DNA from: an uncultured Bacteriovoracaceae bacterium
GTDB lineage: Bacteria > Bdellovibrionota > UBA1018
Direction of reading: 5' to 3'
NCBI GenBank assembly: GCA_964563795.1
Contig: CAZLYB010000005.1
Location: 2,031-66,030 of the forward strand
DNA length: 64,000 bases
Shown piece after piece: positions 28,934-52,036 of the stretch (its first letter is position 1; each line of letters opens with the position of its first letter). Under the pieces are notes generated by a model. The model had not been told where the DNA came from, made no database searches, and saw only the letters and a program-made list of their open reading frames with translations. The position numbers were made by a program, and so were the translations under genes.

Positions 28934-29911
28934 ATGAAATTCTGGATTGGATTTAAGGGGTTAGCGGTTTACGGCTTGAGCGTTGGGATTTTGCTTCACG
29001 CACCTTCAGTTCACGCCGCGGGATCTAATACCTGCACCCCGAGTGCTTCAGGCCTTTCCACTCCTAAGCCTCTTCGTGAAGTCGTGCTGAGACCCGTGAG
29101 CACGCTTCCGTTTCAGCTCCCCAATGGGACGCGAGTCGACCTCAGCACTGATTTGAACACGATGCTGGGAACCGCGGTGACTCAAACGGGGATTTTCGCT
29201 CCGACCGATGGATTCAGCCTCAGCTCTGACCCCTGCGCTCAGAGGGTTGAGATCCGGGCGGCGGTGACGGCCATGCAATTCGACACGATGTCTGCCAACG
29301 TCCGCGTGAGCTTTGGTTACTCCCCTGCGGGAGAGACCCGGCTCAACCTCACGCAGCTCAGCGCGAGTGCGGGCGTGCGGGTGGGAACGATCGCGATGGA
29401 TTTCAGCGTCTGGCGCTGCGTGGGTTCGCGGTGCACCCAGATCGCGGCTCAGTCGGCCAACCAAGCGACCGTGGGGACGAACCTCAGTTTTCAAGTGGAT
29501 TTCAATCTCATCAAAACCGCCTCTGATCTGACCTGGAACACCGCTCTGGGCTCCCTGCTTGCGAAGATCATGAACAAGGGGCTGACAGCCCTGGCGAGTT
29601 CTACGCGGGTGGATCTGCTGCCCTGGAGCGCGTCGGTCCTGACTTATCGGCCGGAGTCGGGCTTGATTTACCTCGATGCCGGTTCATTCTCCCTGCTTGC
29701 GCCCAATCAGGCGCTTGAGATCGACACGCTGGAGCGCTCCTCCGGACAATGCGAAGTTTACAAGAGCGTCGCTTACGCGCACACGACGCAGGTGGATCTG
29801 ATGAGCAGCGAGGCTCAAGTCGACCAGATTTTTGATGCTCGGGGCGTTCGCGCCGGCGATGTGATCATGGTCCGCGTGGTTCCTGTTTCTTCAGCAGGCA
29901 GTAAGAAATAA
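28934..29911 (+). CDS. Secreted beta-rich protein, unknown function
   Basis: 325 aa with a signal peptide ending SVHA-AGS. It is Ser/Thr/Ala/Val-rich. Its stop overlaps the ATG of the next gene (TAATG). Confidence 0.55.
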   Translation: MKFWIGFKGLAVYGLSVGILLHAPSVHAAGSNTCTPSASGLSTPKPLREVVLRPVSTLPFQLPNGTRVDLSTDLNTMLGTAVTQTGIFAPTDGFSLSSDPCAQRVEIRAAVTAMQFDTMSANVRVSFGYSPAGETRLNLTQLSASAGVRVGTIAMDFSVWRCVGSRCTQIAAQSANQATVGTNLSFQVDFNLIKTASDLTWNTALGSLLAKIMNKGLTALASSTRVDLLPWSASVLTYRPESGLIYLDAGSFSLLAPNQALEIDTLERSSGQCEVYKSVAYAHTTQVDLMSSEAQVDQIFDARGVRAGDVIMVRVVPVSSAGSKK

Positions 29912-34259: not shown

Positions 34260-37200
34260 GTGGGGCGCGATCGATTTTTTTATTTAAAGAAAATTCAAAA
34301 TCATTTGAGGCAAATCCTCGTTTTGACGCTTTGTTTTCAAGTGAGCCTACCTCTCGGCGTGGTCTTGCGTCCCTCCGCTTCCGTCGCGATCGCAGGCCCT
34401 GAAGATGAATTGCGGGAGGTCCTTGCCGGCCTTGATACCACCGACGCGACGCAGCCCCCTCCGCGAGTTGACCCTTCCCATTTGTCTGGGCAGCGGCTCA
34501 AGATTACTCTCTCCGATGGCACCGTTGAGTTTGACGGGTCATTGGATGAGCTCGATCTCAGTCGCCCTTCCATTGCGATCGGGGATTTTTCCAAAGTCCA
34601 AGTCGCCGTTACTCCGGAGGGACTTGTTTTCACGATGTCGCTCAAAGGAGGCAAGATCGCTCAGCAGCTGATTCCACTGCCAGGGATTGTCGCAACGACG
34701 AGATTGCAGGGAGACCGGGAGTTTTTCGCCGTAATGGATGATCAGGGCCGGGTTTTGGTGATGGATGCGGGACTCATGCCTGGAACCCTCTTTGATGCGC
34801 CTCAGCTCGCCAATTTCGTGGTTCAGCTCCGCCTTTCTCCAGGACAAGCGCAGAATGCGCGATTGAACTTCGTCTCAAGGGGATTGAGGCCGGTTTCATC
34901 GGGCTTGGATCAAGTCAGTGACGGGGGAGATTTACTCATCACGGATCATTCCTCAGGGAGCGCGGTTCCGCTTTCAGCTCCGATCAGCCGCGATGTTTTG
35001 CATGCAAAAGTCGCGGAAGCCGAAGCGCTCACCGCGGTGACGAATCTCCTCGCTGGTCCCCGGGCTCAGTCCGGCGGGCTCGTGCGCACCGTGTTTGCTC
35101 TTTTAAGGGATCGTGAATTGGTCGCCGCTTACCGGGAGTTGACCCAGACGATGGATCCCGCTTTAGCTCGCACGTTTCAAAGCTTGAGCACCAGAATGGT
35201 GACGAGCTTGCTCGCTCGAGCCAGCGTCAACCAAAGCCAGCAAACCCAGAACCGCTCTCGAGTGAAGGATCGAATATCGAGGAAAGGGTGGGTCGATTCT
35301 TATGAAAAGATTCAGGCGAAGGCCCGGCAGATGCTTGAGAGAAAGAATAGCTTTTTTCAAAAAGTCAGGCAGAAGATCGGCTTTTACAAAAACGGCGAGC
35401 TGACCCCAGCGTTAGCCGAGAATATGCAGGCAGGACTGGACAACGGTGATTTTGCCGAGATGACGCCGCTTTTGATCGAAGCCGTCTTGAAAGACGCGAC
35501 CCAAGGTAAAAAAACATGGAAGGATTTTTTGACTCCCCAAGTCTTGCGCTGGTCCGCGGCTTTGGCGGGAGGAGTCGCAGTCGGAGCAGGTTCAGGATGG
35601 ATGATGCGGCATGGTTTCATGCCGCATTGGATTCAATTCACGCTTCATCGCGCTTATCACCTCTTTACGCCCGATGTCCTTCAGGATCGCCCCTACAGTA
35701 TTACGCTTTTGAAAAGCGCGGCCTCGCTCGTGACTCTGACGATTCCCGTCATGTTCACGCTGACGTGGGCGGCTTCAGCGATGATGAGATGGAAGCTGGG
35801 TCCCAGTGGCGCTTTTGTGAGGACGGGCAATCGACTCAATGCCGAGGTTTTTTATCCAATTTATCATCGGTTGATCGGGTTTTTTAGGCAACCCAATCTC
35901 ATGGTGGCGGCGCAAAATGATCTTCCTTCCAGCAGAAGAGTCACCCCGAGTTCAACGTTAGGGCAGAGGTTTAATCTCGATCAAAACTTTCGCCTAGGGC
36001 TGATGAATCCTTTTCAAAGCCGAGAGTCATTCGAAGCTGAAAAAGAGTTGAAATTAAAGCTTCTGACTGGGGCTGCCCGAGCTGAGCAAGACCGTCGAGC
36101 AACCGCCATGGCCCTGGCTTTGATGATCGTGAGCACCGAGAACGGCGAGATCGATCCTGCGGCGCTGGCCATCGCGATCGGGGAAAGCGGGGATTCAGGC
36201 GTGATTCCTGAGACGATTTATGCGCGTTTAGCGGAGGACCCCGCGCTTTGGAAAAAGTACGAGCAAGCGCATGAAGAGCTCATTCGCATGATGGAACGGC
36301 TTCAACTCAATGGCGCCCCTCTGCTGAGCCAAATCGACCCTCAGGAGCTCAGTCATTATTTATCGGCGGCTCAGGTCGTCGCGCGGCAATTGACGGTGGA
36401 GAAAAACAAGCCCGTGCTTGAAAAGTGCGCTCGGCTTTGGAGAAAGGCGACTCGAGCGCTGAGAGTGGGGAGCGCGAGTTTTGCGGTGAATGAGCGCCGC
36501 TTTTTGAAAGTTTATGAGGCGAGTGATTTCGTCAAGCGGCTCGTGACCCAGTCTTACATTATCGACCAGCTCATCGTTATTTTTCAGGTGGCCTTATTTA
36601 GCGAACGCGCGAACCTCAAAAATCCTTCAGCTCTCTTTGCGGATGCGAATGGCCCAGCTTACACGAATAAGGGTTTTTTCGCGGAGATGATCGAACAAAC
36701 TTTGATCGGCTGGCTGGCCTTTAGCTCTCAAATCGCGCTCGTGTATGGAAGGGCGGCTAAAATTACGGAATCTCGTTACGATGCGCCTCAGTACCAAGAG
36801 TCTTTGGGGGATGAAAAGACGGAGAGTTTTTTTAGCGGCATCCTGGATTATGTCATGAACGCCCTTAACCTCAAAGAGGCCGATTATGCGCGGCGAGTCT
36901 TTTTGAAGCGCCTTACGAGCAGCCTCAGCACAGTCCAATCGGGCTGGATCTTTGGTGTCTTTTCTCGAGTTGCTTCCGGCGTGCAGACCTTCACTCAGGC
37001 TCAGCTGCCTTGGCTAGCAGTCTACATCGCAAGCACCCCGGTTTTTGGATGGATCTGGGGATTGTCACGAGGGCTTGAAATGTCCGAGGATAAAATGGGC
37101 GCGCGAAAAGAAGAGTGGGACAATATCCGCGTCAGACTCATGCAAGGATTGGAGATCCAGGATGACGCTCAGATTCGAAGCGCTGTCCAAGAACTCAGGG

Positions 37201-37778
37201 CCATCTACGCCCGGGAAGGCGTCGCGCTCCCTGAGGTTTTGCAGACGAATCTCGCGCAGGTGGAGCAGTTTTTCTCGCTCTCCGGATCTGAGCGCGTGCT
37301 CGTGAATGACTGGTTCAATGAGGGGATCAAAGCGCTGATGGAGCTCGATCGGGCTCTCCACGCTGAGGAAGGAGGCGATGAAGCGGTCGCCCAGGCGGAG
37401 GCTCAGCTTCGGGCGCGATATCAGGAGAGCCCAATAGAACTTTTGGAGCGCGTGAATCAGCTGCGGGGGGAGGCGCTTTTGGAGTACGCCCGAAAAAATC
37501 CCCCTTATAACACTAAAATTCATGGTCTCGTGAGTTGGGGAGTGAATGCTTTTATCGCGATCGCAACCACGATGCTTGCGGTTCCGCTTTACGTTTTTTC
37601 ATTCAGGCCCGATGTGAATTGGGGGTTTTGGTTGCCTGCCATGACCGCTTATGCGGGCGCGTTTTATACGAGCGCCTATTATGGGCTAGATTACCTGGCG
37701 AAAAAATTCCCGCTTTTCCGAGGCGAAGTCGACCCCCGCAAGACCTGGAGCCGCTGCCGGCAAGCGCTCCGGCTTTAA
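34260..37778 (+). CDS. Large (1172 aa) polytopic membrane protein, unknown function
   Basis: A single long ORF with a GTG start and an N-terminal signal/anchor. It has several hydrophobic clusters around residues 430-520, 800-830, 900-950 and 1100-1150, separated by helical soluble regions. I recognise no catalytic motifs. Confidence 0.6.
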   Translation: MGRDRFFYLKKIQNHLRQILVLTLCFQVSLPLGVVLRPSASVAIAGPEDELREVLAGLDTTDATQPPPRVDPSHLSGQRLKITLSDGTVEFDGSLDELDLSRPSIAIGDFSKVQVAVTPEGLVFTMSLKGGKIAQQLIPLPGIVATTRLQGDREFFAVMDDQGRVLVMDAGLMPGTLFDAPQLANFVVQLRLSPGQAQNARLNFVSRGLRPVSSGLDQVSDGGDLLITDHSSGSAVPLSAPISRDVLHAKVAEAEALTAVTNLLAGPRAQSGGLVRTVFALLRDRELVAAYRELTQTMDPALARTFQSLSTRMVTSLLARASVNQSQQTQNRSRVKDRISRKGWVDSYEKIQAKARQMLERKNSFFQKVRQKIGFYKNGELTPALAENMQAGLDNGDFAEMTPLLIEAVLKDATQGKKTWKDFLTPQVLRWSAALAGGVAVGAGSGWMMRHGFMPHWIQFTLHRAYHLFTPDVLQDRPYSITLLKSAASLVTLTIPVMFTLTWAASAMMRWKLGPSGAFVRTGNRLNAEVFYPIYHRLIGFFRQPNLMVAAQNDLPSSRRVTPSSTLGQRFNLDQNFRLGLMNPFQSRESFEAEKELKLKLLTGAARAEQDRRATAMALALMIVSTENGEIDPAALAIAIGESGDSGVIPETIYARLAEDPALWKKYEQAHEELIRMMERLQLNGAPLLSQIDPQELSHYLSAAQVVARQLTVEKNKPVLEKCARLWRKATRALRVGSASFAVNERRFLKVYEASDFVKRLVTQSYIIDQLIVIFQVALFSERANLKNPSALFADANGPAYTNKGFFAEMIEQTLIGWLAFSSQIALVYGRAAKITESRYDAPQYQESLGDEKTESFFSGILDYVMNALNLKEADYARRVFLKRLTSSLSTVQSGWIFGVFSRVASGVQTFTQAQLPWLAVYIASTPVFGWIWGLSRGLEMSEDKMGARKEEWDNIRVRLMQGLEIQDDAQIRSAVQELRAIYAREGVALPEVLQTNLAQVEQFFSLSGSERVLVNDWFNEGIKALMELDRALHAEEGGDEAVAQAEAQLRARYQESPIELLERVNQLRGEALLEYARKNPPYNTKIHGLVSWGVNAFIAIATTMLAVPLYVFSFRPDVNWGFWLPAMTAYAGAFYTSAYYGLDYLAKKFPLFRGEVDPRKTWSRCRQALRL

Positions 37779-37781
37779 AGG

Positions 37782-38828
37782 CTAGCCCACTGACCCGATC
37801 GCGAACTCCCCGACCGGGGGCTCGGTCAACCAATCCGTACGGCTGAGCTTGGCCAAGGTTTGAAAAGGACCATTGCCCAGAGCGCACGCTCCGAGTCCCA
37901 CGGCGCTTGCCGCGAGGTAGAGATTCTGAAAGAGGCCACCCAGCTCCTTTAAGATCAAGGCGTAGGCGAAGTCCTCGTATTTCCAGGCAGTGCGCGCAAA
38001 GCGCGCGGAGATGCTGAAGTGGATCCAGTTGTCGCCGCTGAGGTCCGCCGCGCGCCGGGCTCGATCTCGAAGCTCCCGGGCTTCTTCATTGAAAGGAGAA
38101 AGCATTTCGAGCGCGTGCTCGTTTGAGAGGTAGCGGTAAACGCCGGGCGGGAGGCCTACTGCACCATTTTCTGGGATGACGGGGTAGATTTCGAGCGGAT
38201 ATTTCGCACCTCCGCTGGGGTAGCTACGGTGGGAGGGCTCTCCTTGAGGAATTCCAGAGCGGACTCGGGCTGAAAGATCGAGAAGCGATCCGAGCTGAGA
38301 GAGCGTGAGTGGAGGCCCTGTAAAATCTCTTGCTGAATGCCGTTGGTTAAGAGCCGTCGTGAGATCGAGGGAAATTTCTTTGGCGTCGGGCAAAAAAATG
38401 GGGTTCTCCGTGCGGGACGGTAAATGGGGAGCCTCCTCGGGAATCGCATCGCGGAAACGATAAGTTCCTCCTTTCCCTAAGCGGGATCGCACATGGAATA
38501 GCAGTTCGTGCGGGGTCCAATGTCTCAAGATGTCAGACTCACCTGCGTTATTTTCCCGATCTGCAATCCAGAGGATCTCGTTGCGTTGCAAGTCGGCGAC
38601 GATTTCAGCGAGTTGCGTGGCCGGGAGCGTCGTTTGGATTTCATCGAGGGATGTCGGCGAGGCGAACTGATGAAGTAAACCCAGGATTTCGGGATTCTTA
38701 AGGCGGATGCTTCGAACGGCGGCCGGTGAGGCGATGTGGCATTGGCCATCGAGCCAGGACACCACTGCGAAGCGCGAGACGACATAGCGGATCGGGGCGG
38801 ATAAAGAGGGTTGCATCAGCGTCATCAT
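37782..38828 (-). CDS. SagB-type (nitroreductase-superfamily) FMN dehydrogenase with an N-terminal RRE-like extension
   Basis: 348 aa with blocks typical of SagB/ThcOx-type dehydrogenases: WTPHELLFHVRS, NQRHSARDF, SYPSGGAKYPLEIYPV, GVYRYL..EHAL, KYEDFAYALILKELGGLFQNLYLAASAVGLGACALG. An additional N-terminal domain of about 100 aa precedes them. Confidence 0.75.
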   Translation of the reverse strand: MMTLMQPSLSAPIRYVVSRFAVVSWLDGQCHIASPAAVRSIRLKNPEILGLLHQFASPTSLDEIQTTLPATQLAEIVADLQRNEILWIADRENNAGESDILRHWTPHELLFHVRSRLGKGGTYRFRDAIPEEAPHLPSRTENPIFLPDAKEISLDLTTALNQRHSARDFTGPPLTLSQLGSLLDLSARVRSGIPQGEPSHRSYPSGGAKYPLEIYPVIPENGAVGLPPGVYRYLSNEHALEMLSPFNEEARELRDRARRAADLSGDNWIHFSISARFARTAWKYEDFAYALILKELGGLFQNLYLAASAVGLGACALGNGPFQTLAKLSRTDWLTEPPVGEFAIGSVG

Positions 38829-39094
38829 AATGACCCTGCGGATGATTAGCGAGCTCGAAGAACCTGTCTCCGATGAAAACTAAAAAGGTTTCGAATCTAG
38901 GAAATGAGTTGATGTTCTCAATCAAGATTCAGAAAAATTTTATCAAGCATAAAAATTTAAAATTTAGATAAAAACCTCTGTTTTTAGGCTTTTTTTAACG
39001 CACCGTTAGTTGAACTCGAGTGGCCCATTATTTAACATGTATTTAGCATCACTCAAAAGGGGGGGATGATCCCTTTCTTTTTCCAAAGGAGGAC

Positions 39095-39274
39095 ATGATG
39101 AGGACGCTAAGTTGGATACTGAGTTCTTTTTCGGTCTTAGGGTCGGCAGTCTTGCGGCACGATGGGGCGAAAAATCCAGAGATCTTTGAGATCACCGATC
39201 AGATGGTGGAAGCAGACTTGCTCCCCTATGAAGATTGCAGCCATTGCGGCGGCTGCCGTCGAGGCGATCGCTAA
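39095..39274 (+). CDS. Unannotated 59-aa Cys-rich peptide, candidate RiPP precursor
   Basis: At 59 aa it is below the 60-aa cut-off of the ORF track. Hand translation gives MMRTLSWILSSFSVLGSAVLRHDGAKNPEIFEITDQMVEADLLPYEDCSHCGGCRRGDR, ending at a TAA stop at 39272-39274. An AAAGGAGG Shine-Dalgarno lies at 39085-39092, 2 nt before the first ATG and 5 nt before the second. A 14-bp hairpin follows directly downstream. Confidence 0.65.
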   Translation: MMRTLSWILSSFSVLGSAVLRHDGAKNPEIFEITDQMVEADLLPYEDCSHCGGCRRGDR

Positions 39275-39279: not shown

Positions 39280-39323
39280 GCGGACTCCCAGGTTGCGGGG
39301 TTTACCTCGACCTGGGAGTCCGC
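39280..39323 (+). terminator. Perfect 14-bp stem-loop immediately after the peptide gene (attenuator or partial terminator, or a transcript-stabilising hairpin)
   Basis: gcggactcccaggt (39280-39293) is the exact reverse complement of acctgggagtccgc (39310-39323). The loop is 16 nt. The hairpin is followed by tattaatat rather than a clean U-tract. Confidence 0.55.
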
Positions 39324-39389: not shown

Positions 39390-40889
39390 ATGCGATGTCT
39401 CCTTGCGATCCTACCGCTCCTCGGGATGATTGGCGCGAGTTGCCGAAGCGAGCCCGTCACTCAGATTCGATATGTATCTGATTTGCCCCTGCGCACCTCG
39501 ATCAATCTTAGAAATCCAAAACTCGAAACCGAAAATCTGCTCGTGGCGCAGCTTTGGTCGCCGCTCGTGGAGTGGGATGGAGCTAACGAGTTTTTGCCCG
39601 CGATCGCTGACAAGTGGTCGCACGATTTGGAGCGCCGACACTGGGTGTTTCGGATCCGAGAGGGCTTGAAATGGGCCGATGGCTCCGACTTGACTGCGAG
39701 TGCCGTGGTACGATCCTTTGAAGATCTCCTCGCTCGTACGCGGAATCGAGGATTTCGCGATCAAGTAAAGCGAGTGAGGGTATCCCAGTCGAACGAAATC
39801 ACCCTGGATCTGAAGGCCTATAGCGAGCATTTCTTGCCGACATTGACGTGGTTCACCGGCTACATCGCTGATCCGAGCAACTATCGAGACCCCAAAGCCG
39901 GGTTAATCGATCTGAAGGACCCACGCACTCGCTTCAGTGGCCCTTATCGCATCAAACAATGGAATCAGAACCATCTCGAACTTGAGGCGAATCCTCATTC
40001 ACCGGTGGTCGATCCCCATTTAGTTCTGCCGGTTTCCTACCAAGGAGGCGTCCCTCCGACTGAGATGGTTGCCCGGGTCGAGCGCAATGAAGCGGATATT
40101 GCGCGGCTTTACTCGGATTCTGTGCCGACCGCGGAGCTTGAACGCCTTCGGTCCCTGGGGCATCAGACTTTTGGGGATAGTGCTCGGGGCACCGTAGCGG
40201 GTTTCGTCGTTGGACGAGGGGGCGCTGACCGTATTTCTTCTCGGGATCGAAGTTACCTGTTTCGTCGCTTAGTCGAAGCTTTTCGGGAGGACGTGCGCGT
40301 TGGCCGCAAAGATCTCTCCTTGCTTCCGGTGGGGATAACGCCGCCGCTTGCCCAAGGGAGCCTATCGGAGCACGAATGGAATCTCCTCATCGAGGGCCTC
40401 CCAGCCCAGCCCAGCCGACGCTTTACTGTTCAAGTTTTCGTGGCGCGACCCCTCCAATCGGGCTCCGCTTACCAGATCGCGCGACGCGCGTTGATCTCGT
40501 CACCCGTGGATTTTCACGAAGTGGTCTTTGATCCCGAGCGTCCAGAATCGGCCGAGACCAGGCGCCGTGAAAGCGGTGATTTCGATCTTCTTTATTACGC
40601 ACACCCCGTCGATTTTCGCACGTCGGGAGCCATGTGGCAGAAATTTGCGGAAATTCAGGAATATCGTCACCCTCCCTTGACCACCCGCGAGGTCCAGCGG
40701 GTTACTTTAGCGCGGCCCGCGCTTCAGAGCGCCCTCTTCTCAGAATTCGAGAAGAAGAACGCGAGGGACCCTTTCTTCATTCCGCTCTTGAGGGTTTCTC
40801 GGCTCTTGATCGTCAGCAAAAGGCTCAAACTTGCCTCCGACGCCGCGAACCAATACGTCTTACGTTTTTGGAAAGTCCGAAACCAATAA
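39390..40889 (+). CDS. Family-5 (DppA/OppA-like) solute-binding lipoprotein, orphan
   Basis: I chose the start MRCLLAILPLLGMIGASC (lipobox) with GAGG 9 nt upstream. The block ADKWSHDLERRHWVFRIREGLKWADGSDLTASAVVRSFE is typical of SBP_bac_5. No permease or ATPase genes are nearby. The track ORF begins at 39339. Confidence 0.7.
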   Translation: MRCLLAILPLLGMIGASCRSEPVTQIRYVSDLPLRTSINLRNPKLETENLLVAQLWSPLVEWDGANEFLPAIADKWSHDLERRHWVFRIREGLKWADGSDLTASAVVRSFEDLLARTRNRGFRDQVKRVRVSQSNEITLDLKAYSEHFLPTLTWFTGYIADPSNYRDPKAGLIDLKDPRTRFSGPYRIKQWNQNHLELEANPHSPVVDPHLVLPVSYQGGVPPTEMVARVERNEADIARLYSDSVPTAELERLRSLGHQTFGDSARGTVAGFVVGRGGADRISSRDRSYLFRRLVEAFREDVRVGRKDLSLLPVGITPPLAQGSLSEHEWNLLIEGLPAQPSRRFTVQVFVARPLQSGSAYQIARRALISSPVDFHEVVFDPERPESAETRRRESGDFDLLYYAHPVDFRTSGAMWQKFAEIQEYRHPPLTTREVQRVTLARPALQSALFSEFEKKNARDPFFIPLLRVSRLLIVSKRLKLASDAANQYVLRFWKVRNQ

Positions 40890-40906: not shown

Positions 40907-41515
40907 ATGAGTTACCTGAAAAACTTGGAAACCATCCGTAAGAAGCATTTTCCCATGTCTTTTCCCGACGGAAATCAAGCGGTACTCGCGTCATCGGCCG
41001 AGATTGATCGCTTGATGGATTCTCTTTGGAGCAAGGTTTTTGGTTCATTTGATTCGGAGCTCGCCAAATATCAGCTCTCTGTCGAGCGGCGCGACAGGGA
41101 TGCGGAACTCTTCCAAGGTTATTATTCCGCCGTTCACCGGGAAGGCGTGATTTTTCGGAATGCCGCCGGAAACGATTTCGGTTGGTTCTTCGGGGACGCC
41201 GAAGATTTTCATACATTTTATTTAAGAAATGGGGGGTTTGCTCCTGAAGCGAGGGGGGCAGGCATTGCGGGACAGTTCCTAGGCAGGTTTTTAAATTATC
41301 TGCGGGATCTCGGTTATGAGAGAGTGACGGCCCAGGTGCAGCCCAATAATTCGCCCATGCTGATCAGCTATTTGAAGCAGGGTTTTGTCATCGAGGGGAT
41401 GAACCTCGACGAACGTTGGGGGCCTTTGGTGAAATTCCTTTATCTCCTTCATCCTGACCGTCAGGTCGGATTTGAGAAAGTTTTTCGGCTGCGCTCAGTT
41501 CAGTCAAAGGGATGA
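40907..41515 (+). CDS. GNAT-family N-acetyltransferase
   Basis: I chose the start MSYLKNLE with GAGGAG 8 nt upstream. The acetyl-CoA motif context is EARGAGIAGQFLGRFLNYLRDLGYERV...NNSPMLISYLKQGFVIEG. Confidence 0.7.
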   Translation: MSYLKNLETIRKKHFPMSFPDGNQAVLASSAEIDRLMDSLWSKVFGSFDSELAKYQLSVERRDRDAELFQGYYSAVHREGVIFRNAAGNDFGWFFGDAEDFHTFYLRNGGFAPEARGAGIAGQFLGRFLNYLRDLGYERVTAQVQPNNSPMLISYLKQGFVIEGMNLDERWGPLVKFLYLLHPDRQVGFEKVFRLRSVQSKG

Positions 41516-42489
41516 AGCAAGAATCGGTCGGCAGGATGAAACTGGCCTGGGGCACGCCGTTCTCGGGCGCTCTTCACGCGTGGATTGGCCAGATAGAACT
41601 CGCGCGCTGCCACGTAGGGCTGGCTAAAATGGAGCGGCAAAAGCAATTTGTTTTGAGCCTGAATGACAAAGTAACGCGGTGAAAGGGTCTTGAGCCGAGT
41701 AAATCGGGTTGCGGATCGCAAACTGGATGAGTCGATGAGCGTTTCGTCAAAAGAAACCGATGAAGAGGCGCACATTGAGGGGTTCACCCCAAGAATCAGC
41801 TCCAGGAGTCGCGCGACATCGGGTTCCATTGAGATGAGGTGATGCCGAGCCAGGTCGGCATCCCTGGACTTCTTGCTGGGGCAATCCCCTCGCGCGCGGT
41901 GGGCATGCACCGAGGCGAGCCACTCCAGAGTCGCTTTGCGGCTCGCGAATGAAACGCTCGGGCCGGTTCCCATTCCCAAGTGCCAGCAGCCATGCATCGG
42001 CGAACGGCTCGCAGCGAGACAGACCACGATCCCCGGGTCCGCGCTGGAGAGCTGTACGACTCGCAGTTGACCTTCCTGAGTGAGGTTGCGGGCGGTTTCA
42101 ACGAGCGGATGGGGGTGATCGACCTCCCGAGCTGGGGTTTCACTGAGCCAATGGTAGAGCAGGGCGTCACGCTCGACGAGTTCCGCATAGGCGCCTGCCT
42201 TCGCCGATTCTTCAGAAAAGTTGGCTGAAAGCCCTGTGCGACTCTGCAGATCGAGATTGGATTGGGTGATGGCGACGCTCTCTAAAGCCTCCATGAGGCA
42301 GCGAATGGCTTGGACGCGCCGACTTTCGTCAACCGCGCCGCCGAGGAAGTCCTGGTTTGGCCCCAATTTGACGGAAACGAATCCTGCCCACGCCGGCCCA
42401 ATCCGAGTGAGCGTACGCCAAGAGGTTTCTAGGGTAACCCCTGCCATTTTCAGAGCCGTTTGACGGAAAAACCAATCTAATAATTTCAT
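41500..42489 (-). CDS. YcaO-superfamily protein (short, stand-alone)
   Basis: 329 aa with three blocks laid out as in YcaO domains: GGAVDESRRVQAIRCLMEALESVA, then TGLSANFSEESAKAGAYAELVERDALLYHW, then VVCLAA....HLGMGTGPSVSFASRKATLEWLASV. The C-terminus ends ...LLHPFD. The 3' end overlaps the GNAT gene by 16 nt in convergent orientation. Confidence 0.65.
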   Translation of the reverse strand: MKLLDWFFRQTALKMAGVTLETSWRTLTRIGPAWAGFVSVKLGPNQDFLGGAVDESRRVQAIRCLMEALESVAITQSNLDLQSRTGLSANFSEESAKAGAYAELVERDALLYHWLSETPAREVDHPHPLVETARNLTQEGQLRVVQLSSADPGIVVCLAASRSPMHGCWHLGMGTGPSVSFASRKATLEWLASVHAHRARGDCPSKKSRDADLARHHLISMEPDVARLLELILGVNPSMCASSSVSFDETLIDSSSLRSATRFTRLKTLSPRYFVIQAQNKLLLPLHFSQPYVAAREFYLANPRVKSARERRAPGQFHPADRFLLHPFD

Positions 42490-42527: not shown

Positions 42528-44699
42528 ATGATGGAGGAATCGCCTCATTTTTTGACCTATTTCTACGCGCGCTTTCGCAGAGTGGTGCCGGTCATGGGAG
42601 GGGTCGTTCTCTGTTTGGCGATCGGAGTCGCCGCAAGTATCTGGCTCCGTCACACTCAAGTTCGGTATGCCTTGCAGCAGTTTGTACTTGCGTCGTCGTA
42701 CGAAGAGAATCCTCGAACTGTTCATAGTTACCTTCGTCTCGTTCACTCCACCGTCCAGGCCGCGCTGAACTCCGGATCTTTGGGGGATTCGAAGTGGGTT
42801 GGGGCCGCCTCGTTGACCCTCGTTCTTTGTCAGTCGGGAACCGTCGTGGCGCGATTCCCTATTTGGGATGTTACGGGAACGTGGTCCTGTCAGGGAGATA
42901 AGAATTATGAAGTGGGTGCCCTGCGGATCCGAACTCCTGTGCCATTCATTGGAGAGAACGTTGTCTTGGAAGCACGGGCTGTCGCACCCTGGATCGATGC
43001 CTGGTCAGTCTCGATTGGCACCTCACTCCTCCTTTTGGGCCTCACCATTTGGGGAATTGCATACCGGAGCCGACGCGAGCGCTGGCAAATCCACTCCGTA
43101 TTCCAATGCTTGGACCATGATCTGGCCGACATCCCCCCGATGACTTCCAAAATGCCGATCTGGCCCCATTGGACGCCTCAGGCGGTCGTCTTTCTGCGAG
43201 AAAAAATCTTGCAACTCCGAAAGCGTCTGCAGACCTTACAGGAAGAGCAGTCTCGGGCGCGGGCGGATGCGGCGGTTGGCGAGGTAGCCGAACAAGTGGC
43301 CCATGATATTCGTTCCCCTCTGACGGTTCTTGAATACGCCTCGCGTGAACTCTCAGAGATTCCCGAGGGGAAAAGGGTTCTTTTTTACAATGCCGTCAGT
43401 CGGATTCGGGCGATCGCCACCGACTTGGGCCATATGAGCGAAGGACTCAAGGGCGAGGACGGCTCATCCGTGGTGAGTCGCCGATCTGCGGAGCGACCAG
43501 TGGAAGCTTCCCCTCTTTTGCCGATACTCCAAGAAATCCTGGCGGAAAAACGGGTTCAATACATCGGCCGTCCTGGCCTTAAGTTCGAATTGGTTCTTGA
43601 GGAATCCGCCTATCATCAATTCGTCAAAGTCCGCGTCGATGACTTCAAACGCATTCTTTCGAACCTGATCAATAATTCGGCCGATTCCATTGCAGCGGCA
43701 GGGGTCATTCAAGTTAGGGTGGAGAGGGATTCGGCGGAGGTGCGGGTGTCGATTTCAGATACCGGCCGAGGAATTCCCGCTGAGATTTTGGAGCGACTTG
43801 GAACTCGGGGAGCCAGCTTCGAAAAGCCTGGTGGGATGGGGCTGGGCCTTTATCATGCCCGTCGCTGCATCGAAGATTGGTCTGGGGTCTTGGAGATCCA
43901 GTCGAATCCTGGGTGCGGAACGACCATTGGGCTTCGTCTGCAGGCGGTCACGCCGCCTCGCTGGTTTTTGCCTCGCCTTTCCATCCCAGCGAATTCCACG
44001 TTCGTCATTGTGGATGATGACCCTTCCATTCACGCTCTCTGGGAAGAGCGATTTTCGTCGTTTCATGAAAATGGAAAGGGCACTCGGTTCGAACTCCTGC
44101 ATTTTCATTCGGCGCCTGATTTCACCCTCTGGATGACGGACCGAAAGCTTCCGGAGACCCGTTCGGGACTTCGCTTCTTGATTGATCTCGATTTAGGCAA
44201 GGGCTCATCCAGCGGTCTTGAGTTGATCAAGGCCCATGATTTGCGCCGTCATGTGACGTTGGTCACCAGCCGGCACGATGATTCCCAAGTCCGCGAGCAA
44301 TGTGTGGCCTTGGGCTGCACTCTGCTTCCGAAGTGCTGCGCCGAGCGAATTCCGATTGAATTCGCCAATCCCGTTGAGCATTGGGACGCCATTTTAATCG
44401 ATGACGATCCGGAAATTCGCTGGATGTGGGGGGAAGTCGCCTTGCAGACGCATCATCGATTCCGCAGTTTCGAATCGGTGCAGTCCTTTCTAGCCATAAT
44501 CGATGAGATCAGCTTCGATACGCCGATCTATGTGGATTCTCGGCTCGGAGATGGCCTGCGCGGCGAAGACCTGGCGCAGGAACTTCGAGTGCGTGGGTTT
44601 ACCAAGATTTACCTGACCACGGGCTTGCCTCACGCGCATTTTCCACAAATGTCTTGGGTGGATTCTATTGTCGATAAGCGGGCGCCCTGGGCTTTGTGA
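42528..44699 (+). CDS. Hybrid sensor histidine kinase with two C-terminal receiver domains
   Basis: Two N-terminal TM segments, H-box VAHDIRSPL, HATPase blocks (NLINNSADS, DTGRGIP, GGMGLGLY). Two REC-like domains follow (VIVDDDPS...FLIDLDLG...LVTS...LPK and ILIDDDPE...IYVDSRLG...LTTG...VDK). The start is uncertain; the track ORF starts at 42492. Confidence 0.8.
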   Translation: MMEESPHFLTYFYARFRRVVPVMGGVVLCLAIGVAASIWLRHTQVRYALQQFVLASSYEENPRTVHSYLRLVHSTVQAALNSGSLGDSKWVGAASLTLVLCQSGTVVARFPIWDVTGTWSCQGDKNYEVGALRIRTPVPFIGENVVLEARAVAPWIDAWSVSIGTSLLLLGLTIWGIAYRSRRERWQIHSVFQCLDHDLADIPPMTSKMPIWPHWTPQAVVFLREKILQLRKRLQTLQEEQSRARADAAVGEVAEQVAHDIRSPLTVLEYASRELSEIPEGKRVLFYNAVSRIRAIATDLGHMSEGLKGEDGSSVVSRRSAERPVEASPLLPILQEILAEKRVQYIGRPGLKFELVLEESAYHQFVKVRVDDFKRILSNLINNSADSIAAAGVIQVRVERDSAEVRVSISDTGRGIPAEILERLGTRGASFEKPGGMGLGLYHARRCIEDWSGVLEIQSNPGCGTTIGLRLQAVTPPRWFLPRLSIPANSTFVIVDDDPSIHALWEERFSSFHENGKGTRFELLHFHSAPDFTLWMTDRKLPETRSGLRFLIDLDLGKGSSSGLELIKAHDLRRHVTLVTSRHDDSQVREQCVALGCTLLPKCCAERIPIEFANPVEHWDAILIDDDPEIRWMWGEVALQTHHRFRSFESVQSFLAIIDEISFDTPIYVDSRLGDGLRGEDLAQELRVRGFTKIYLTTGLPHAHFPQMSWVDSIVDKRAPWAL

Positions 44700-44715: not shown

Positions 44716-45438
44716 CTATTGGAGGGGGGCTGCCGATGGGTTCGCGAGCTGCGTGCTCACCCCATTGCCTGAAAGCGCGTAGAGATCCGGCGGTGAAAAC
44801 CGGATTTCCAAGTTCAGCGGCATCAATTTGCGGCGCAGGTTGAAGAGATGGACATCCAGGGTTTTGCTGCTGATGGAGATGTTTTTCCAGACCTGCGAGA
44901 GGATTTCCTTGCGGGTGATGCCATGGGTCTTCGCGCGGTGGAGCATTGAGAAAATTTGAAGCTCCTTCGCGGTCAATTGAGCGAAGGAATTCTCATTGCG
45001 GCGGATGGCGAGCTCAGTGGGGTCGAAGAAAACGCCGGGAAAGCAAGAAGCCTTCTCCTGCTTGCTCATGAGGCGCTCGACTTTGACGATGAGCTCCGCT
45101 TTTGTGAAGGGCTTGGTGAGGTAATCAGCGGCGCCTTCATTGAAGCAGGTTCTGAGAATGTCGAGATCATCGCATGAGGAGACGATGATGATGGAGCAGG
45201 AAAGGCTTTTGACCTCGGACTCCTTGCCCAAAAAACTCAAAAAGTTGCCATCCGGAAGCCTGAGGTCGGCGACTAGAAGATCCGGCGTTTCGCCCGGCTT
45301 CATTTCCTTCAGCGCATTTTTTAAATCACCTAAGTTTGAGAACGATCGGTAACGATACCGCAGCTCGAGAATCTCGCGATACACGAACTCGACATCAGAG
45401 TCATCTTCGAGCACCCAAATCACTTGTTCTGACTTCAT
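44716..45438 (-). CDS. OmpR/PhoB-type response regulator
   Basis: I chose the start MKSEQVIWVLEDD, which overlaps the kinase stop (ATGA). It has a REC domain (LLVADLRLPDG) plus a winged-helix output (LTAKELQIFSML...SSKTLDVHLFNLRRKL). Confidence 0.85.
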   Translation of the reverse strand: MKSEQVIWVLEDDSDVEFVYREILELRYRYRSFSNLGDLKNALKEMKPGETPDLLVADLRLPDGNFLSFLGKESEVKSLSCSIIIVSSCDDLDILRTCFNEGAADYLTKPFTKAELIVKVERLMSKQEKASCFPGVFFDPTELAIRRNENSFAQLTAKELQIFSMLHRAKTHGITRKEILSQVWKNISISSKTLDVHLFNLRRKLMPLNLEIRFSPPDLYALSGNGVSTQLANPSAAPLQ

Positions 45439-47114
45439 GGTAAAACCTCGCTCCAGTGTTCTAATGGAGTATTTCGCGTAAGTCCCGTGCTTTGAGCAAG
45501 GGGCATCATCAGCCAAAAACTTGTACCCGGTCTATTTTGATCCACTATTGAGAGTTGCCCCCCGTGATTCTCGATCAACCGCCGAGTCAATCTCAATCCG
45601 AGGCCACGCTTGGATCCTGATTTGAGATCGACTCCATTCTGGTCATTGGAAATAAACTTTTCAAATTCGGCGGCGCTTAGCCCTGTGCCGTTATCGCTGA
45701 TGGTTAGCTCTATGAAAAAGGGATTCAGGGCTTGAAGGCGAACCTGAATTTGAGGGTCATGGGTCCGATGGCTGAAGAGATTCTCAAGGCTATTGCGGTA
45801 AAGATTGTCGAGGATGTGTACCAAATCCAAGGGAGCGATTTTAACCGTTAATGAAGCGAGTTCAGGAGAGCAAGTGAATCGTGCTTTCTTAAAATCCTCG
45901 GGCCCAAATTGAAGCTCCAGGAGTTTCATCACATTTTGGTGGGCTTCCATGAAGTTGGTTTCTGAGTGGGCTATGGAAGGGTTTTTGCCGTGAGTCTTCA
46001 AGGACGTCACCAGCTGTTGGATGCGATTGAAGTTGGCGCTCAATTTTTCGAGATAAAGACCGCGACGGGGGGAGTCGGGGCTCTCCGTCAGCTCATTCAA
46101 GACGTAGCTCGCCGCATGCAGCGGACCGCTCAGGTCGTGGGCGATGAGCGCCGACATCTCCCCGAGTTGCTTGTAGCGGTTTTTCTCGGATTCCTCGATC
46201 ACCACGAGCGCAAGCTCCCGCTGGCTGAGTTTGAGCCTCTTGCTGAGCAGGTTGTAAGAGCTTTCGAACTTGGCGAGCAAAGGCGAGGTGTGCGAGGGAA
46301 GCGTCACAAGATCCCCGTTGAAATCCATCCGATCCATCTGATGAAAGAGCTCCATGAGCGCTTGAATGAAGGAGCTTCTTGCGAGGTACCAAATTCTGCC
46401 GAAGAGGGCCGCCCCCAAGGCGGCGATCAGCGTCATAGCGAGCAAGGTAGGGGTGCGCTCAGTGAACAAGTTGGAATGGAGAGTCATGATTTGCAGGCTC
46501 AACGTGAAGAAGGCGATGGAGATCAAGGAGATGATCTCATGGTTCTTGAATTGTTCCTGACCTTTCAAAAGCTCGAAGGCTTCGGAGAAATCAAAGCGCT
46601 CATGAAGCTCCCGGATCTTTCGCGAGAGGAAAATATGCGAATCCAGGAACGATGCTCCGTAGAAGTAGCAGAGGTTCACGGCCATGATCCCCAGCATCAT
46701 CAATGCTTGCTCCTGATTGCTGATGGAGTGTTTCCAGAAAAAAATCACGATGAGGAGGGCAGGAAGCGCTCTCAAGAAACTCCCGCCACAGAGAAACTTC
46801 GCGCGTCGGGCGGGAAATCTCGAGAACGATTCGAGAAGGGTTTTTTTCTGAGAGGTGCCAAAGTGCTGAATCTGACTGAAGTCGAGTTCGGGGAAGAACG
46901 AAGCGCTCTCCGGGTAAAGCCATAAAAATCCTCTGCGGTCGATGGCTCTAAAGACCGCATATGAGAGGGCATCCACGGCCATCATGACGAAAAATTCGAG
47001 CAGAGAGGGTCTGAGCAAAAGAATGATCGGCGGGGCGAAGCCCAGGTAAATGAACAACCAGCTCAAAGGGCTGACGCAATCGGATAGGGATCGTTGGCGT
47101 GGGAATTTGAGCAT
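45435..47114 (-). CDS. Membrane sensor histidine kinase
   Basis: 559 aa with a polytopic N-terminus, H-box IAHDLSGPL and HATPase blocks (NLYRNSLEN, DNGTGL, GLGLRL). Confidence 0.85.
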   Translation of the reverse strand: MLKFPRQRSLSDCVSPLSWLFIYLGFAPPIILLLRPSLLEFFVMMAVDALSYAVFRAIDRRGFLWLYPESASFFPELDFSQIQHFGTSQKKTLLESFSRFPARRAKFLCGGSFLRALPALLIVIFFWKHSISNQEQALMMLGIMAVNLCYFYGASFLDSHIFLSRKIRELHERFDFSEAFELLKGQEQFKNHEIISLISIAFFTLSLQIMTLHSNLFTERTPTLLAMTLIAALGAALFGRIWYLARSSFIQALMELFHQMDRMDFNGDLVTLPSHTSPLLAKFESSYNLLSKRLKLSQRELALVVIEESEKNRYKQLGEMSALIAHDLSGPLHAASYVLNELTESPDSPRRGLYLEKLSANFNRIQQLVTSLKTHGKNPSIAHSETNFMEAHQNVMKLLELQFGPEDFKKARFTCSPELASLTVKIAPLDLVHILDNLYRNSLENLFSHRTHDPQIQVRLQALNPFFIELTISDNGTGLSAAEFEKFISNDQNGVDLKSGSKRGLGLRLTRRLIENHGGQLSIVDQNRPGTSFWLMMPLAQSTGLTRNTPLEHWSEVLP

Positions 47115-48945: not shown

Positions 48946-49114
48946 GTGGTGGACTCACCTGGAAGACTTTCTAACTGCCTGCTTGCCAATGTCAGCCTGA
49001 AACCTATTGAAAAGACAGGGTTCTACCGTGGCGGAGTCTCTAACCAGACTAGCCTATCGGAACTCTCTCTAACCCGCAATTCCGAATCTTGCGGGAAAAA
49101 ATGGGGGAAGGCTT

Positions 49115-52023: not shown

Positions 52024-52036
52024 AGGGGGAAAAGAC

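Follow-up and report, generated by a model that had tools for sequence, protein, structure and literature searches.

A probable exported peptide with modified cysteines, encoded by a small gene kept together with a minimal YcaO, a family-5 binding lipoprotein and a sensor kinase

The ORF at 39095-39274 of the 64-kb window (by which we mean the whole stretch of DNA analyzed here) is almost certainly a real gene; its product is most likely an exported peptide with modified cysteines, of an undescribed kind. Our best explanation is that its 58-aa product is the precursor of a peptide that would be exported by a Sec signal, carry thiazol(in)e rings made by YcaO and SagB, and play a role in the periplasm as the YcaO-made equivalent of the bufferins, whose precursors bear signal peptides, a reading to which we give a probability of about one half. 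The ORF, its ribosome-binding site, its conserved position and design, and the identities of the neighboring genes are established, whereas translation, export, the chemistry and the roles of the binding protein and kinase are inferred. Judged from gene content, its conserved partners are a YcaO, an orphan family-5 solute-binding lipoprotein and a sensor kinase, while a SagB dehydrogenase is accessory and found in this genome only. The features of the locus are listed below, with the evidence in brackets.

37782-38828, minus strand: SagB/ThcOx-type FMN peptide dehydrogenase (TIGR03605, 136 bits vs. 78; Pfam Nitroreductase and ThcOx N-terminal domains)
39010-39038, plus strand: candidate promoter, TTGAAC at 39010-39015, 17 nt, TAACAT at 39033-39038 (weak match)
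39085-39092, plus strand: Shine-Dalgarno motif AAAGGAGG (read in the sequence; AAGGAGG also in the sister loci L017 and L019)
39098-39274, plus strand: small gene, 58-aa peptide MRTLSWILSSFSVLGSAVLRHDGAKNPEIFEITDQMVEADLLPYEDCSHCGGCRRGDR (ORF, public gene call, sister counterparts, profile match)
39098-39169, plus strand: signal-peptide-like N terminus, residues 1-24, made of M-R, the h-region TLSWILSSFSVL(GSAVL) and R-H-D-G-A (hydropathy, layout of the sisters)
39233-39256, plus strand: Cys cluster D46-C47-S-H-C50-G-G-C53, putative modified core (sequence, sister alignment)
39280-39323, plus strand: strong stem-loop between the peptide stop codon and the gene of the solute-binding protein, SBP (fold -39.1 kcal/mol, z -7.4; no U-run after it)
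39390-40889, plus strand: orphan family-5 solute-binding lipoprotein, MRCLLAILPLLGMIGAS-C... (Pfam SBP_bac_5, 75 bits)
40907-41515, plus strand: GNAT acetyltransferase, last gene of the peptide-SBP operon (Pfam Acetyltransf_1)
41500-42489, minus strand: minimal stand-alone YcaO, 329 aa, convergent with the peptide operon (Pfam YcaO)
42529-44699, plus strand: hybrid sensor histidine kinase, divergent from YcaO (HATPase_c and receiver-like matches)

The Small ORF and Its Translation Start

A preliminary description of this DNA had proposed a 59-aa ORF at 39095-39274 on the plus strand, preceded by a AAAGGAGG Shine-Dalgarno motif and tandem ATG codons. Its translation was reproduced from the sequence; the motif is found at 39085-39092, the two ATGs at 39095 and 39098, and the TAA stop codon at 39272-39274 (plus strand). 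The spacer between motif and start codon is 2 nt for the first ATG, which would give the 59-aa product, and 5 nt for the second. Because AAGGAGG, 5 nt and ATG follow one another in both sister loci, and because a public gene finder already calls the 58-aa form (P0001), translation most likely starts at the second ATG, 39098, and not at the first as had been proposed. The gene is indeed missing from the ORF list supplied with the sequence, which is a threshold effect, as the listing defaults to 60 aa and the 59-aa ORF falls one residue short. Upstream, the suggested promoter lies at the coordinates claimed for it, but matches the consensus at 8 of 12 positions, under the 9 of 12 that our promoter scan demands, and was not reported by that scan.

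AAGGAGG occurs 16 times in the 64-kb window, and only at the 39085 site and one other is it followed, 3-10 nt downstream, by an independent ORF of more than 50 aa. A third such site, at 11245 (minus strand), was discarded, as it lies inside a 143-aa ORF. The codon usage of the small ORF is the best of the six frames and weakly coding-like (+1.0 bit, vs. 14 ± 9 for the neighboring genes), a score as low as that of 8% of real-gene windows. It is the sum of two unequal parts, codons 1-24 scoring -7.5 bits, with a rare-codon bias, and codons 25-58 scoring +8.5 bits, with a normal coding bias.

Searches with the peptide returned little. A word-indexed search of 5.8e9 protein clusters found only the peptide itself, and an exhaustive phmmer search of 1.84e9 representatives added two spurious repeat proteins. 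A metagenome tblastn scan gave no match, and no record in public contigs was identical to the 58-aa product. Nothing in Pfam or NCBIfam, their bufferin models included, matched the peptide even at a threshold of E 10.

Two Sister Loci Share the Gene Order and the Peptide Design

Relatives of the YcaO were found in only two loci among 5.8 billion protein clusters, at 41-43% identity. In both (L017, over a 21-kb region, and L019, over 5.7 kb), the same module is present, made of a sensor kinase, the YcaO, an SBP5 lipoprotein and a small ORF, such that each of the three known YcaOs of this subfamily has a peptide of like design beside it. A further locus, L018, is identical to L017. The sister ORFs, of 56 aa (L017/L018) and 58 aa (L019), had escaped gene calling and lie directly upstream of the orthologous SBP gene; in each, AAGGAGG precedes the ATG by exactly 5 nt. 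The four genes of the module are syntenic orthologs, with identities of 41-43% for YcaO, 27-32% for the histidine kinase, 26-31% for the SBP and ~32% over 53 aa for the peptide. The motif, its spacing, the length of the ORF and the design of the peptide recur in two lineages that differ in G+C content (63% and 53%).

An open reading frame of like length is present in both sisters. A profile built from the two sister peptides ranked the window peptide first of 5,597 six-frame ORF segments, with an E value of 8e-4. The two other leave-one-out profiles of the three, as well as pairwise tblastn and phmmer, did not recover the third peptide, the similarity being marginal, and the conservation described here is that of three loci, a small sample.

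These comparisons bear on the possibility that the ORF arose by chance in a noncoding leader, the Shine-Dalgarno-like motif and the hairpins belonging to an untranslated regulatory RNA ahead of the SBP gene. The low codon bias of the ORF as a whole would fit such an origin, as would the lack of a homolog in protein databases and in the metagenome tblastn scan and the hairpins on either side. Against it stand the retention, across three diverged lineages, of an open frame of equal length, the identical geometry from Shine-Dalgarno motif to ATG and the same N- and C-terminal peptide features in all three, the leave-one-out profile match at E 8e-4, the best coding score of the six frames, and the lack of a matching family in Rfam. 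We thus consider a chance ORF very improbable.

The Peptide Combines a Signal-Like N Terminus with a C-Terminal Cys Cluster

Each of the three peptides begins with M-(G)-R-[ST]-x-x-W-[IL] and continues with 17-19 apolar residues, and the hydropathy of the window peptide peaks at 1.57 over residues 5-19. The two sister ORFs have in common an M-R start, 17-19 hydrophobic residues up to an AxA motif, an acidic middle and a C-terminal “DC...C” cluster. The conserved N-terminal layout, judged by inspection of the three peptides, is that of an n-h-c arrangement: M-R, 17-19 hydrophobic residues, a P/G break and AxA. In L017 it reads MR / SSIWIWSFVVTLLLQVV / PGRHAVA before T, and in L019 MGR / TVAWLIALTVVLFSFMGL / RSQQAQA before A, each with a clear AxA site. 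The window peptide lacks a clean AxA, having D at position -3 of “HDGA”; GSA before V is a weak alternative, which would make a short signal. From this layout we infer that the N terminus is a Sec-type signal peptide, although the Arg-flanked apolar stretch of 17-19 residues could be a membrane anchor instead.

Beyond the hydrophobic segment, each of the three peptides is negatively charged overall (net -4 to -5). Of the features first ascribed to the product, the hydrophobic start and the acidic middle recur in both sisters, while the basic tail finds no counterpart, the sister tails being acidic. The C-terminal Cys clusters read DCSHCGGC in the window, DCSSCG in L017 and DCGCGECFNC in L019, and in each peptide “DC”, a further Cys and a Gly lie equally far from the C terminus. 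The C-x2-C-x2-C pattern seen earlier is thus present (C47, C50 and C53 in 58-aa numbering) but is not a conserved one: related loci keep D-C, at least one more Cys and the Gly, and not the spacing of the three cysteines. A RiPP precursor and a Sec-exported Cys peptide had been put forward as alternatives. Given the n-h-c layout and the bufferin precedent discussed below, both readings are probably right, and it is their opposition that falls away.

A Binding Lipoprotein and a Sensor Kinase Accompany the Peptide Gene

The SBP gene, whose longest ORF starts at 39339, encodes a protein with a lipoprotein-type signal, and its orthologs (26-30%) follow the peptide gene in L017 and L019. Its best solved relatives are NikA structures, which it matches in its N-terminal part only (E 7e-9). 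Among the scanned neighbor genes, none belongs to a permease or ATPase family of ABC transporters, and none is listed for L017. The kinase (longest ORF from 42492) has two transmembrane segments and a periplasmic domain of ~120 aa, and its orthologs (27-32%) are likewise divergent from YcaO in both sister loci. Among the scanned genes of the module, there is no conserved protease or ABC exporter.

A hairpin comparable to that found after the peptide stop codon is present in L019 (z -5.5), where it covers the ribosome-binding site and the start codon of the SBP gene, and the hairpin of L017 is weak. Rfam holds no family for the hairpins or the leader region. In the window, hairpins flank the small ORF on both sides. 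In the explanation that we prefer, the hairpin after the stop codon would lead to more peptide transcript than SBP/GNAT transcript.

A Minimal YcaO Is the Best-Conserved Gene of the Module

The YcaO gene lies 2.2 kb downstream of the peptide gene, and its product matches Pfam PF02624 with 49.3 bits (cut-off 25.7) while staying under the TIGR03604 cut-off (34 vs. 219 bits). It is the best-conserved gene of the module, and is found with the peptide in all three loci. All residues that do not vary in an alignment of 9 diverse YcaOs are retained in the protein (E67, E70, E103, E106, R107 and H326-P-F), and with them both E-x-x-E pairs and the C-terminal HPF/HPI. With residue roles assigned from conservation and general knowledge, the enzyme looks catalytically intact.

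Searches with the YcaO gave no match to PDB sequences, no match in a tblastn of plasmids, and, in a metagenome scan with the YcaO alignment, only distant YcaOs of other architecture; a search for a PxPxP motif in the YcaO literature was without result. No RRE-containing E1-like/ocin-ThiF partner was found among the neighbor genes with Pfam and NCBIfam, and most azoline-forming YcaOs need such a partner (PMC5589413). The AlphaFold model, made from a 3-sequence alignment, is poor (pLDDT 52.7), and with this low-confidence model the top Foldseek matches are the YcaO structures 6CI7, 4Q85 and 6PE3, at TM-scores of ~0.3. The best fold matches are to the YcaOs of M. kandleri, E. coli and M. jannaschii, the model being of low confidence here too. 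The M. kandleri and M. jannaschii enzymes are TfuA-independent, thioamide-forming archaeal YcaOs.

Because these partner-independent, thioamide-forming archaeal YcaOs are the best fold matches, thioamidation has to be weighed as an alternative: the peptide would be exported as we propose, but YcaO would install backbone thioamides (or an amidine), and SagB would be unrelated or a later addition. In line with this, the YcaO is minimal and without a partner, the sister loci are without any dehydrogenase, and the first motif is E-x-x-E-S/T, where cyclodehydratases have E-x-x-E-R, a deviation also seen in the TfuA-linked YcaO of L011. The fold matches come from a low-confidence model with TM-scores of ~0.3, however, the module holds no TfuA or sulfur-transfer gene, the conserved core residues are cysteines, the nucleophiles from which azolines form, and SagB adjoins the peptide gene in this genome. 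Thioamide formation is, on balance, improbable.

A second alternative is that the peptide is not modified at all, and acts as a small exported or membrane-anchored Cys peptide on the kinase and the SBP, with YcaO serving another target. It could then be a regulator like MgrB, whose conserved cysteines face the periplasm, or a peptide that senses thiols or metals in the periplasm. The likeness to MgrB-PhoQ lies in a peptide of ~50 aa, an N-terminal hydrophobic helix, cysteines that are predicted to be periplasmic, and a genetic tie to a histidine kinase that senses the periplasm. MgrB, a membrane peptide of 47 aa, is an inhibitor of PhoQ (PMC2789325, PMC8404706). An unmodified peptide would be consistent with a design in which an Arg-flanked apolar helix (17-19 residues) leads into a short tail that contains 2-4 Cys, with the co-conservation of kinase and SBP with the peptide in all three loci, and with a YcaO that has no RRE partner and sisters that have no SagB. 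However, the YcaO is as strictly conserved with the peptide as the kinase is (three of three), is the best-conserved gene and is apparently intact; SagB stands directly beside the peptide gene here, with no other candidate substrate in sight; and at E ≤ 0.01 none of the three peptides matches a Pfam small-protein family, MgrB included. The sequence is unrelated to that of MgrB, which moreover needs neither a modifying enzyme nor a binding protein, whereas YcaO and SBP are co-conserved here. We take an unmodified peptide seriously as a possibility, but one that is unlikely.

SagB and GNAT Are Present Only in This Genome

The SagB gene is divergent from the peptide gene, at a distance of 266 bp, and its product has the K-Y motif (…GGAKYP…). 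The claim that the small gene sits at the center of the locus is borne out, with a SagB-family dehydrogenase (136 vs. 78 bits) and a YcaO (49 vs. 25.7) as neighbors. To our knowledge, SagB enzymes act on azolines only, in TOMM/LAP pathways. No SagB homolog is found in the 21 kb of L017 or the 5.7 kb of L019. The nearest relatives of SagB (41%) belong to other YcaO clusters, where they stand beside small precursors with C-terminal Cys cores and charged, nonhydrophobic leaders. The loci reached through SagB, by genome scan and protein search (≤41%), were considered as sister loci and rejected: they are different YcaO clusters with unrelated precursors, and therefore not sisters of this locus.

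At the start of the GNAT gene, AAGAGGAG, 6 nt and ATG follow one another, 18 nt after the SBP stop codon, and tblastn found no match to the gene in L017 or L019. An S8 protease with a weak PatA/G-like match lies 7 kb away and is missing from the sister loci. With neither SagB nor GNAT in the sister loci, azole formation would not be the conserved chemistry of the module.

SagB and GNAT also raise the question of a classical TOMM/LAP precursor, in which the hydrophobic N terminus would be a cytoplasmic leader (bound, for instance, by the ThcOx-type domain of SagB), to be cut by a protease before release through an exporter, with the SBP and kinase having a part in immunity, uptake or regulation. 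The resemblance is considerable in this genome: a short precursor with a C-terminal Cys/Ser/Gly core adjoins SagB, with a YcaO-domain enzyme in the same locus, a hairpin follows the precursor gene, and a GNAT closes the operon as in goadsporin, where a GNAT carries out N-acetylation; the S8 protease with its weak PatA/G-like match, 7 kb off, could be added. However, SagB, GNAT and the S8 protease are all absent from the sister loci, and the conserved partners are the SBP5 lipoprotein and the kinase. The conserved N terminus has an n-h-c layout with AxA sites, unlike a hydrophilic leader, the precursors near the closest SagB relatives having charged, nonhydrophobic ones. No E1-like/ocin-ThiF (RRE) partner, leader protease or ABC exporter is conserved here, SagB alone carries an N-terminal domain of ThcOx type, and the YcaO, at 329 aa, is minimal and highly divergent. 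A classical TOMM/LAP precursor thus appears quite unlikely.

Discussion

In the explanation that we prefer, the N-terminal 17-25 residues would form a Sec-type signal peptide, as the conserved n-h-c layout suggests. Before export, the stand-alone YcaO would use ATP to activate backbone amides by the C-terminal cysteines (at D-C, H-C and G-C) and form thiazolines, which in this genome the adjacent SagB would probably oxidize to thiazoles. Sec and signal peptidase would take the place of the leader protease and ABC exporter of classical clusters, and a mature acidic peptide of ~33-40 aa, bearing heterocycles or thiols, would act in the periplasm together with the SBP5 lipoprotein and the kinase. 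It may be a metal-binding peptide, akin to bufferins or methanobactin, which the NikA-like SBP would bind in its loaded form, or a signal of the cell's own making, sensed through SBP and kinase. That a Sec signal competes with modification in the cytoplasm counts against this explanation.

A precedent exists in the bufferins and oxazolins, whose precursors have Sec signal peptides and heterocycles formed from Cys, with binding of Cu in the periplasm (PMC12452194). There, an N-terminal Sec signal, here predicted, stands in for a leader, the cysteines are turned into heterocycles in the cytoplasm, and the product is periplasmic without a dedicated exporter, a course that we can only propose for the present peptide. 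The enzymes differ, however, being MNIO (DUF692) and DUF2063 proteins rather than YcaO with or without SagB, and no member of these Pfam families was found among the scanned neighbors or in the sister loci. The peptides share no sequence similarity either, and bufferin clusters are without the SBP5-kinase module.

Methanobactin offers another likeness, as a ribosomal peptide with cysteines that is turned into a heterocycle-bearing metal binder, which is what we propose here. Its operons encode an OppA-like periplasmic binding protein, MbnE (PMC7558416), and the present locus has in common with them a binding protein of the OppA/NikA family without ABC permease genes (PMC7558416). In contrast, MbnB/MbnC, the TonB receptor, the MATE exporter and an MbnA-type precursor are absent among the scanned neighbors, MbnA has no signal peptide, and the SBP of the window shows no detectable preference for MbnE over other proteins of family 5, its best solved match being NikA.

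More tentatively, the four genes may form a self-contained periplasmic circuit, in which a Sec-exported peptide, heterocyclized by the minimal, partner-less YcaO and possibly present as a metal complex, would be recognized by the NikA-like lipoprotein, which would inform the kinase; we regard this full circuit as rather unlikely. In keeping a small precursor, a modifying enzyme and a sensor kinase together, the module resembles the AgrBDCA and ComQXPA cassettes, and its peptide and receptor parts diverge faster (26-32%) than its enzyme (41-43%), as they would in a pheromone cassette. These cassettes differ in belonging to monoderm bacteria and in having membrane-embedded receptors, other enzymes and no SBP, and a signaling role is, in our case, putative. 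If true, the circuit would be a YcaO-based pheromone or metallophore-sensing system of diderm bacteria, and the first YcaO RiPP class with a signal peptide replacing the leader.

Sec-signal-bearing precursors are highly unusual for bacterial RiPPs, and are experimentally documented only for the MNIO-modified bufferins (PMC12452194). At a 60-aa ORF cut-off, the key gene of loci like this one stays hidden, and two of the three family members are uncalled in public assemblies. If the peptide is what we propose, YcaO chemistry would extend to precursors with Sec signals, and a minimal, partner-independent bacterial YcaO would gain a clear candidate substrate. A modified peptide would moreover be tied to a sensor kinase and to a binding protein of family 5 that lacks a transporter, in a periplasmic circuit for sensing peptides or metals that could be tested with four genes.

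A Small ORF with Its Own Translation Signals

From the sequence alone, the preliminary description had proposed a 59-aa ORF preceded by a Shine-Dalgarno motif. We recovered the frame, its translation as quoted there and the motif exactly where they had been placed:

39085-39092, + strand: Shine-Dalgarno motif AAAGGAGG
39095-39274, + strand: open frame, 59-aa product, with a TAA stop at 39272-39274
39280-39323, + strand: 44-nt stem-loop 3′ of the stop (−39 kcal/mol, z −7.4)

The ORF track did miss this frame, because it lies one residue under the 60-aa default of the ORF listing, but the gene is not new to gene finders, since the protein collection holds a 58-aa product (P0001) identical to the peptide from its second Met. 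Tandem ATGs are present, 2 and 5 nt from AAAGGAGG, but the 59-aa start is not favored: in the two sister loci described below, AAGGAGG is followed by exactly 5 nt and ATG, which is the geometry of the second codon and makes 39098 the most likely start of the window gene. Of the 16 AAGGAGG copies in the window, just two, this site included, lie ahead of an independent ORF longer than 50 aa. The suggested promoter (TTGAAC, 39010-39015; TAACAT, 39033-39038) lies where it had been located but is weak, matching 8 of 12 consensus positions and going unreported by a promoter scan.

By codon usage, the ORF frame ranks first of six. Its overall score of +1.0 bit is low for a gene (neighboring genes, 14 ± 9 in 58-codon windows, 8% of which score as low), and the intergenic DNA beside it averages −12. 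The deficit lies wholly in codons 1–24 (−7.5 bits; AGG, CTA, ATA, AGT, TTA), while codons 25–58 score +8.5 bits, normal for coding sequence. We regard a chance ORF within a regulatory leader as highly improbable.

Directly 5′ of the Shine-Dalgarno lies a G-rich hairpin followed by CTTTTTCC (39056-39083, + strand), which the scan marked as terminator-like and which could thus be a 5′-UTR attenuator; the fold lacks significance (z −1.15), and no counterpart was seen in sister locus L019.

A Four-Gene Module Shared with Two Other Loci

The genes around the small ORF are as follows:

37782-38828, − strand: SagB-family peptide dehydrogenase (TIGR03605, 136 bits against a cut-off of 78)
39390 (probable start), + strand: family-5 solute-binding protein (SBP) downstream of the peptide gene, with a lipoprotein-type start (MRCLLAILPLLGMIGAS-C)
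40907-41515, + strand: GNAT, with its own ribosome-binding site 18 nt past the SBP stop
41500-42489, − strand: YcaO, 329 aa (Pfam score 49 bits, cut-off 25.7), convergent with SBP and GNAT
42529 (probable start), divergent from YcaO: hybrid histidine kinase (two TM segments, ~120-aa periplasmic domain)

The SBP start was deduced by comparison with its orthologues; the protein is a divergent family-5 member that, among solved structures, best matches NikA nickel/metallophore-binding proteins (E 7e-9, over the N-terminal third only).

The window YcaO has two relatives in the whole collection, P0112 (43% identity) and P0113 (41%). The corresponding contigs are L017 (616 kb, with L018 an identical fragment of it) and L019. 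Both loci show the arrangement of the window, with the kinase divergent from YcaO and YcaO convergent with the SBP5 gene, and both carry, directly 5′ of the SBP5 gene and on the same strand, a small ORF that is uncalled in its assembly:

L017 sister peptide, 56 aa: MRSSIWIWSFVVTLLLQVVPGRHAVATDGHRADQKASLSGFDPSDCSSCGIESDGG
L019 sister peptide, 58 aa: MGRTVAWLIALTVVLFSFMGLRSQQAQAAPIQMSDDIRQTSSDCGCGECFNCEEVMRE

Pairwise identities are 41–43% for YcaO, 27–32% for the kinase, 26–31% for the SBP and ~32% over 53 residues for the peptide. The G+C contents (54.7% in the window, 63% in L017, 53.4% in L019) point to well-separated lineages. Neither L017 nor L019 has a counterpart of SagB, GNAT, a 1172-aa protein or the downstream response regulator; by gene content, the conserved unit is thus peptide, SBP5, YcaO and kinase, so far known from three loci. 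In L017, the module has an IS481-family transposase (4635-5762) ~2.3 kb away on its kinase side, and the peptide gene directly adjoins a Mu-like transposase (13135-14793), which hints at a mobile or rearranged region.

A metagenome tblastn scan with the window peptide gave no match. A word-indexed search of 5.8 billion clusters returned only the peptide itself, and exhaustive phmmer of 1.84 billion representatives added two spurious repeat proteins. Against a 316-kb background, tblastn and phmmer left the three peptides unconnected; a profile of the two sister peptides ranked the window peptide first of 5,597 six-frame ORF segments (leave-one-out, E 8e-4), and the other two such profiles failed to recover their target. 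Because sequence similarity taken alone is marginal, the case for a conserved gene rests on several features jointly: position 5′ of the SBP5 gene, length (56–58 aa), the same translation signals, a common N-terminal motif (M-(G)-R-[ST]-x-x-W-[IL]), an apolar segment of 17–19 residues, a net acidic remainder (−4 to −5) and a “D-C” that lies ~12 residues before the end and has more Cys and Gly after it. The Cys cluster noted earlier is present, but C-x2-C-x2-C is not conserved as such.

By inspection, the L017 and L019 N-termini read as textbook signal peptides (charged n-region, apolar h-region, P/G break, AVA|T or AQA|A). In the window peptide, the n- and h-regions are accompanied by only a weak candidate cleavage site (GSA|V), and the N-terminus may instead be a signal anchor. 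An unmodified Cys peptide, exported or anchored and acting on the kinase and SBP, is a possible but rather doubtful alternative; the small membrane peptide MgrB, which can control a sensor kinase (PMC2789325, PMC8404706), is a precedent for such a pairing. Against this alternative stands the conservation of YcaO together with the peptide.

None of 200 shuffles of the stem-loop at 39280-39323 was equally stable; it has no U-run and no Rfam match. A strong hairpin (z −5.5) also lies between the peptide and SBP genes in L019, covering the SBP start, and the one in L017 is weak. The L019 hairpin (14–15 bp; 3940-4030 on the locus's − strand) pairs the SBP GAGG and ATG with the gene's first codons, suggesting translational control of SBP downstream of the peptide gene.

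Wider Surroundings

A 1172-aa protein with hydrophobic, apparently membrane-spanning stretches (34260-37778, + strand) ends 3 bp from the convergent SagB stop and has no Pfam or NCBIfam match. A 767-aa S8 subtilase comes directly after a secreted 325-aa protein (28934-32214, + strand; stop overlapping start at 29911); the subtilase has weak PatA/PatG-type and mycosin-type matches and lies 7 kb from the peptide gene. A second two-component pair (44716-47114, − strand) comes right after the hybrid kinase, and a prophage-like block occupies ~49100-64000. No tRNA genes were found in the window.

44716-45516, − strand: OmpR-type response regulator of the second pair
45435-47114, − strand: histidine kinase of the second pair, 559 aa
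49115-50092: replication-initiation O-like protein, prophage-like block
50089-50973: DnaC-like helicase loader, prophage-like block
61458-62501: weak baseplate-wedge match, prophage-like block

The YcaO Enzyme and Its Probable Chemistry

The window YcaO consists of a minimal domain. When it was aligned with its two relatives and six YcaOs from other loci (nine in all), the only invariant columns were E67, E70, G86, A96, E103, L104, E106, R107, A182 and H326 of the C-terminal H-P-F/I; the window subfamily keeps them all. We take E67/E70 and E103/E106 to be the paired E-x-x-E motifs at the ATP/Mg site, and H-P-F/I to be the C-terminal motif reaching into the active site. A PDB sequence search with this protein gave no significant match. 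The AlphaFold model, built from a three-sequence alignment, is poor (pLDDT 52.7); its best Foldseek matches, LynD and the YcaO structures of M. kandleri, E. coli and M. jannaschii, support a YcaO fold and nothing beyond.

Azoline-forming YcaOs mostly need an RRE-bearing partner, partner-independent ones being rare (PMC5589413), and no such partner is encoded among the neighboring genes scanned. By its Foldseek matches, the enzyme may resemble partner-independent, thioamide-forming archaeal YcaOs. Together with the missing partner, this speaks for a thioamide rather than an azoline on an otherwise identical exported precursor, which we nevertheless hold to be quite unlikely. The best argument for an azoline is that SagB has been recruited next to the peptide gene, from which it diverges across an AT-rich spacer of 266 bp; Pfam further assigns the protein Nitroreductase and ThcOx N-terminal domains, and it contains the K-Y motif. 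A classical TOMM precursor with a cytoplasmic leader would fit this enzyme pair, but two hallmarks are lacking, the RRE partner and a hydrophilic leader accompanied by its protease and exporter, and the scanned neighboring genes include no ABC permease/ATPase, E1-like/ocin-ThiF, TfuA, MNIO or DUF2063 family; we consider it unlikely.

Relatives of SagB reach at most 41% identity. Their loci were rejected as sister loci, being other YcaO clusters with unrelated, hydrophilic-leader precursors that end in short Cys cores (e.g., ...KAGLNACIDSTWCC, ...KAGECEDHGACITK). The nearest (L011 and L012, 41%) adjoin a fused 730-aa YcaO, L011 additionally having TfuA and a second YcaO. Their small precursors (L011, 15644-16060; L012, 2918-3079) share the leader motif K(K/R)(I/L)RVR(S/T)xVKAG before a short Cys core and look like a separate, coherent RiPP family.

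A Proposed Exported, YcaO-Modified Precursor

Each unusual element of the mechanism that we propose has a precedent. Bufferins/oxazolins have precursors with Sec signal peptides, called highly unusual for bacterial RiPPs, carry Cys-derived heterocycles and bind copper in the periplasm (PMC12452194); methanobactin loci contain a gene for an OppA-like periplasmic binding protein but none for a permease (PMC7558416); and MgrB pairs a small peptide with a sensor kinase. The window peptide is a member of none of these families: the enzymes defining bufferins and methanobactins are absent, the peptide matches no Pfam family and the two TOMM features are missing.

We conclude that the small ORF is a real gene, and we put at about one half the probability that it encodes an exported precursor modified by YcaO. 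The two interpretations first posed as alternatives, RiPP precursor and Sec-exported peptide, probably both apply, and that earlier reading is partly supported. The peptide would be the substrate of the co-conserved YcaO, with the Sec pathway and signal peptidase standing in for a leader protease and dedicated exporter; YcaO would cyclize the Cys cluster to thiazolines, which, in this genome only, the adjacent SagB would oxidize to thiazoles. The best description of the locus is a modified-peptide system of the YcaO type, in which the precursor is signal-peptide-like and a pair of SBP5 and kinase is conserved, and for which we infer the function and chemistry: once mature, the acidic peptide would act alongside the lipoprotein SBP and the kinase in the periplasm, as a metal-binding peptide or a self-produced signal.
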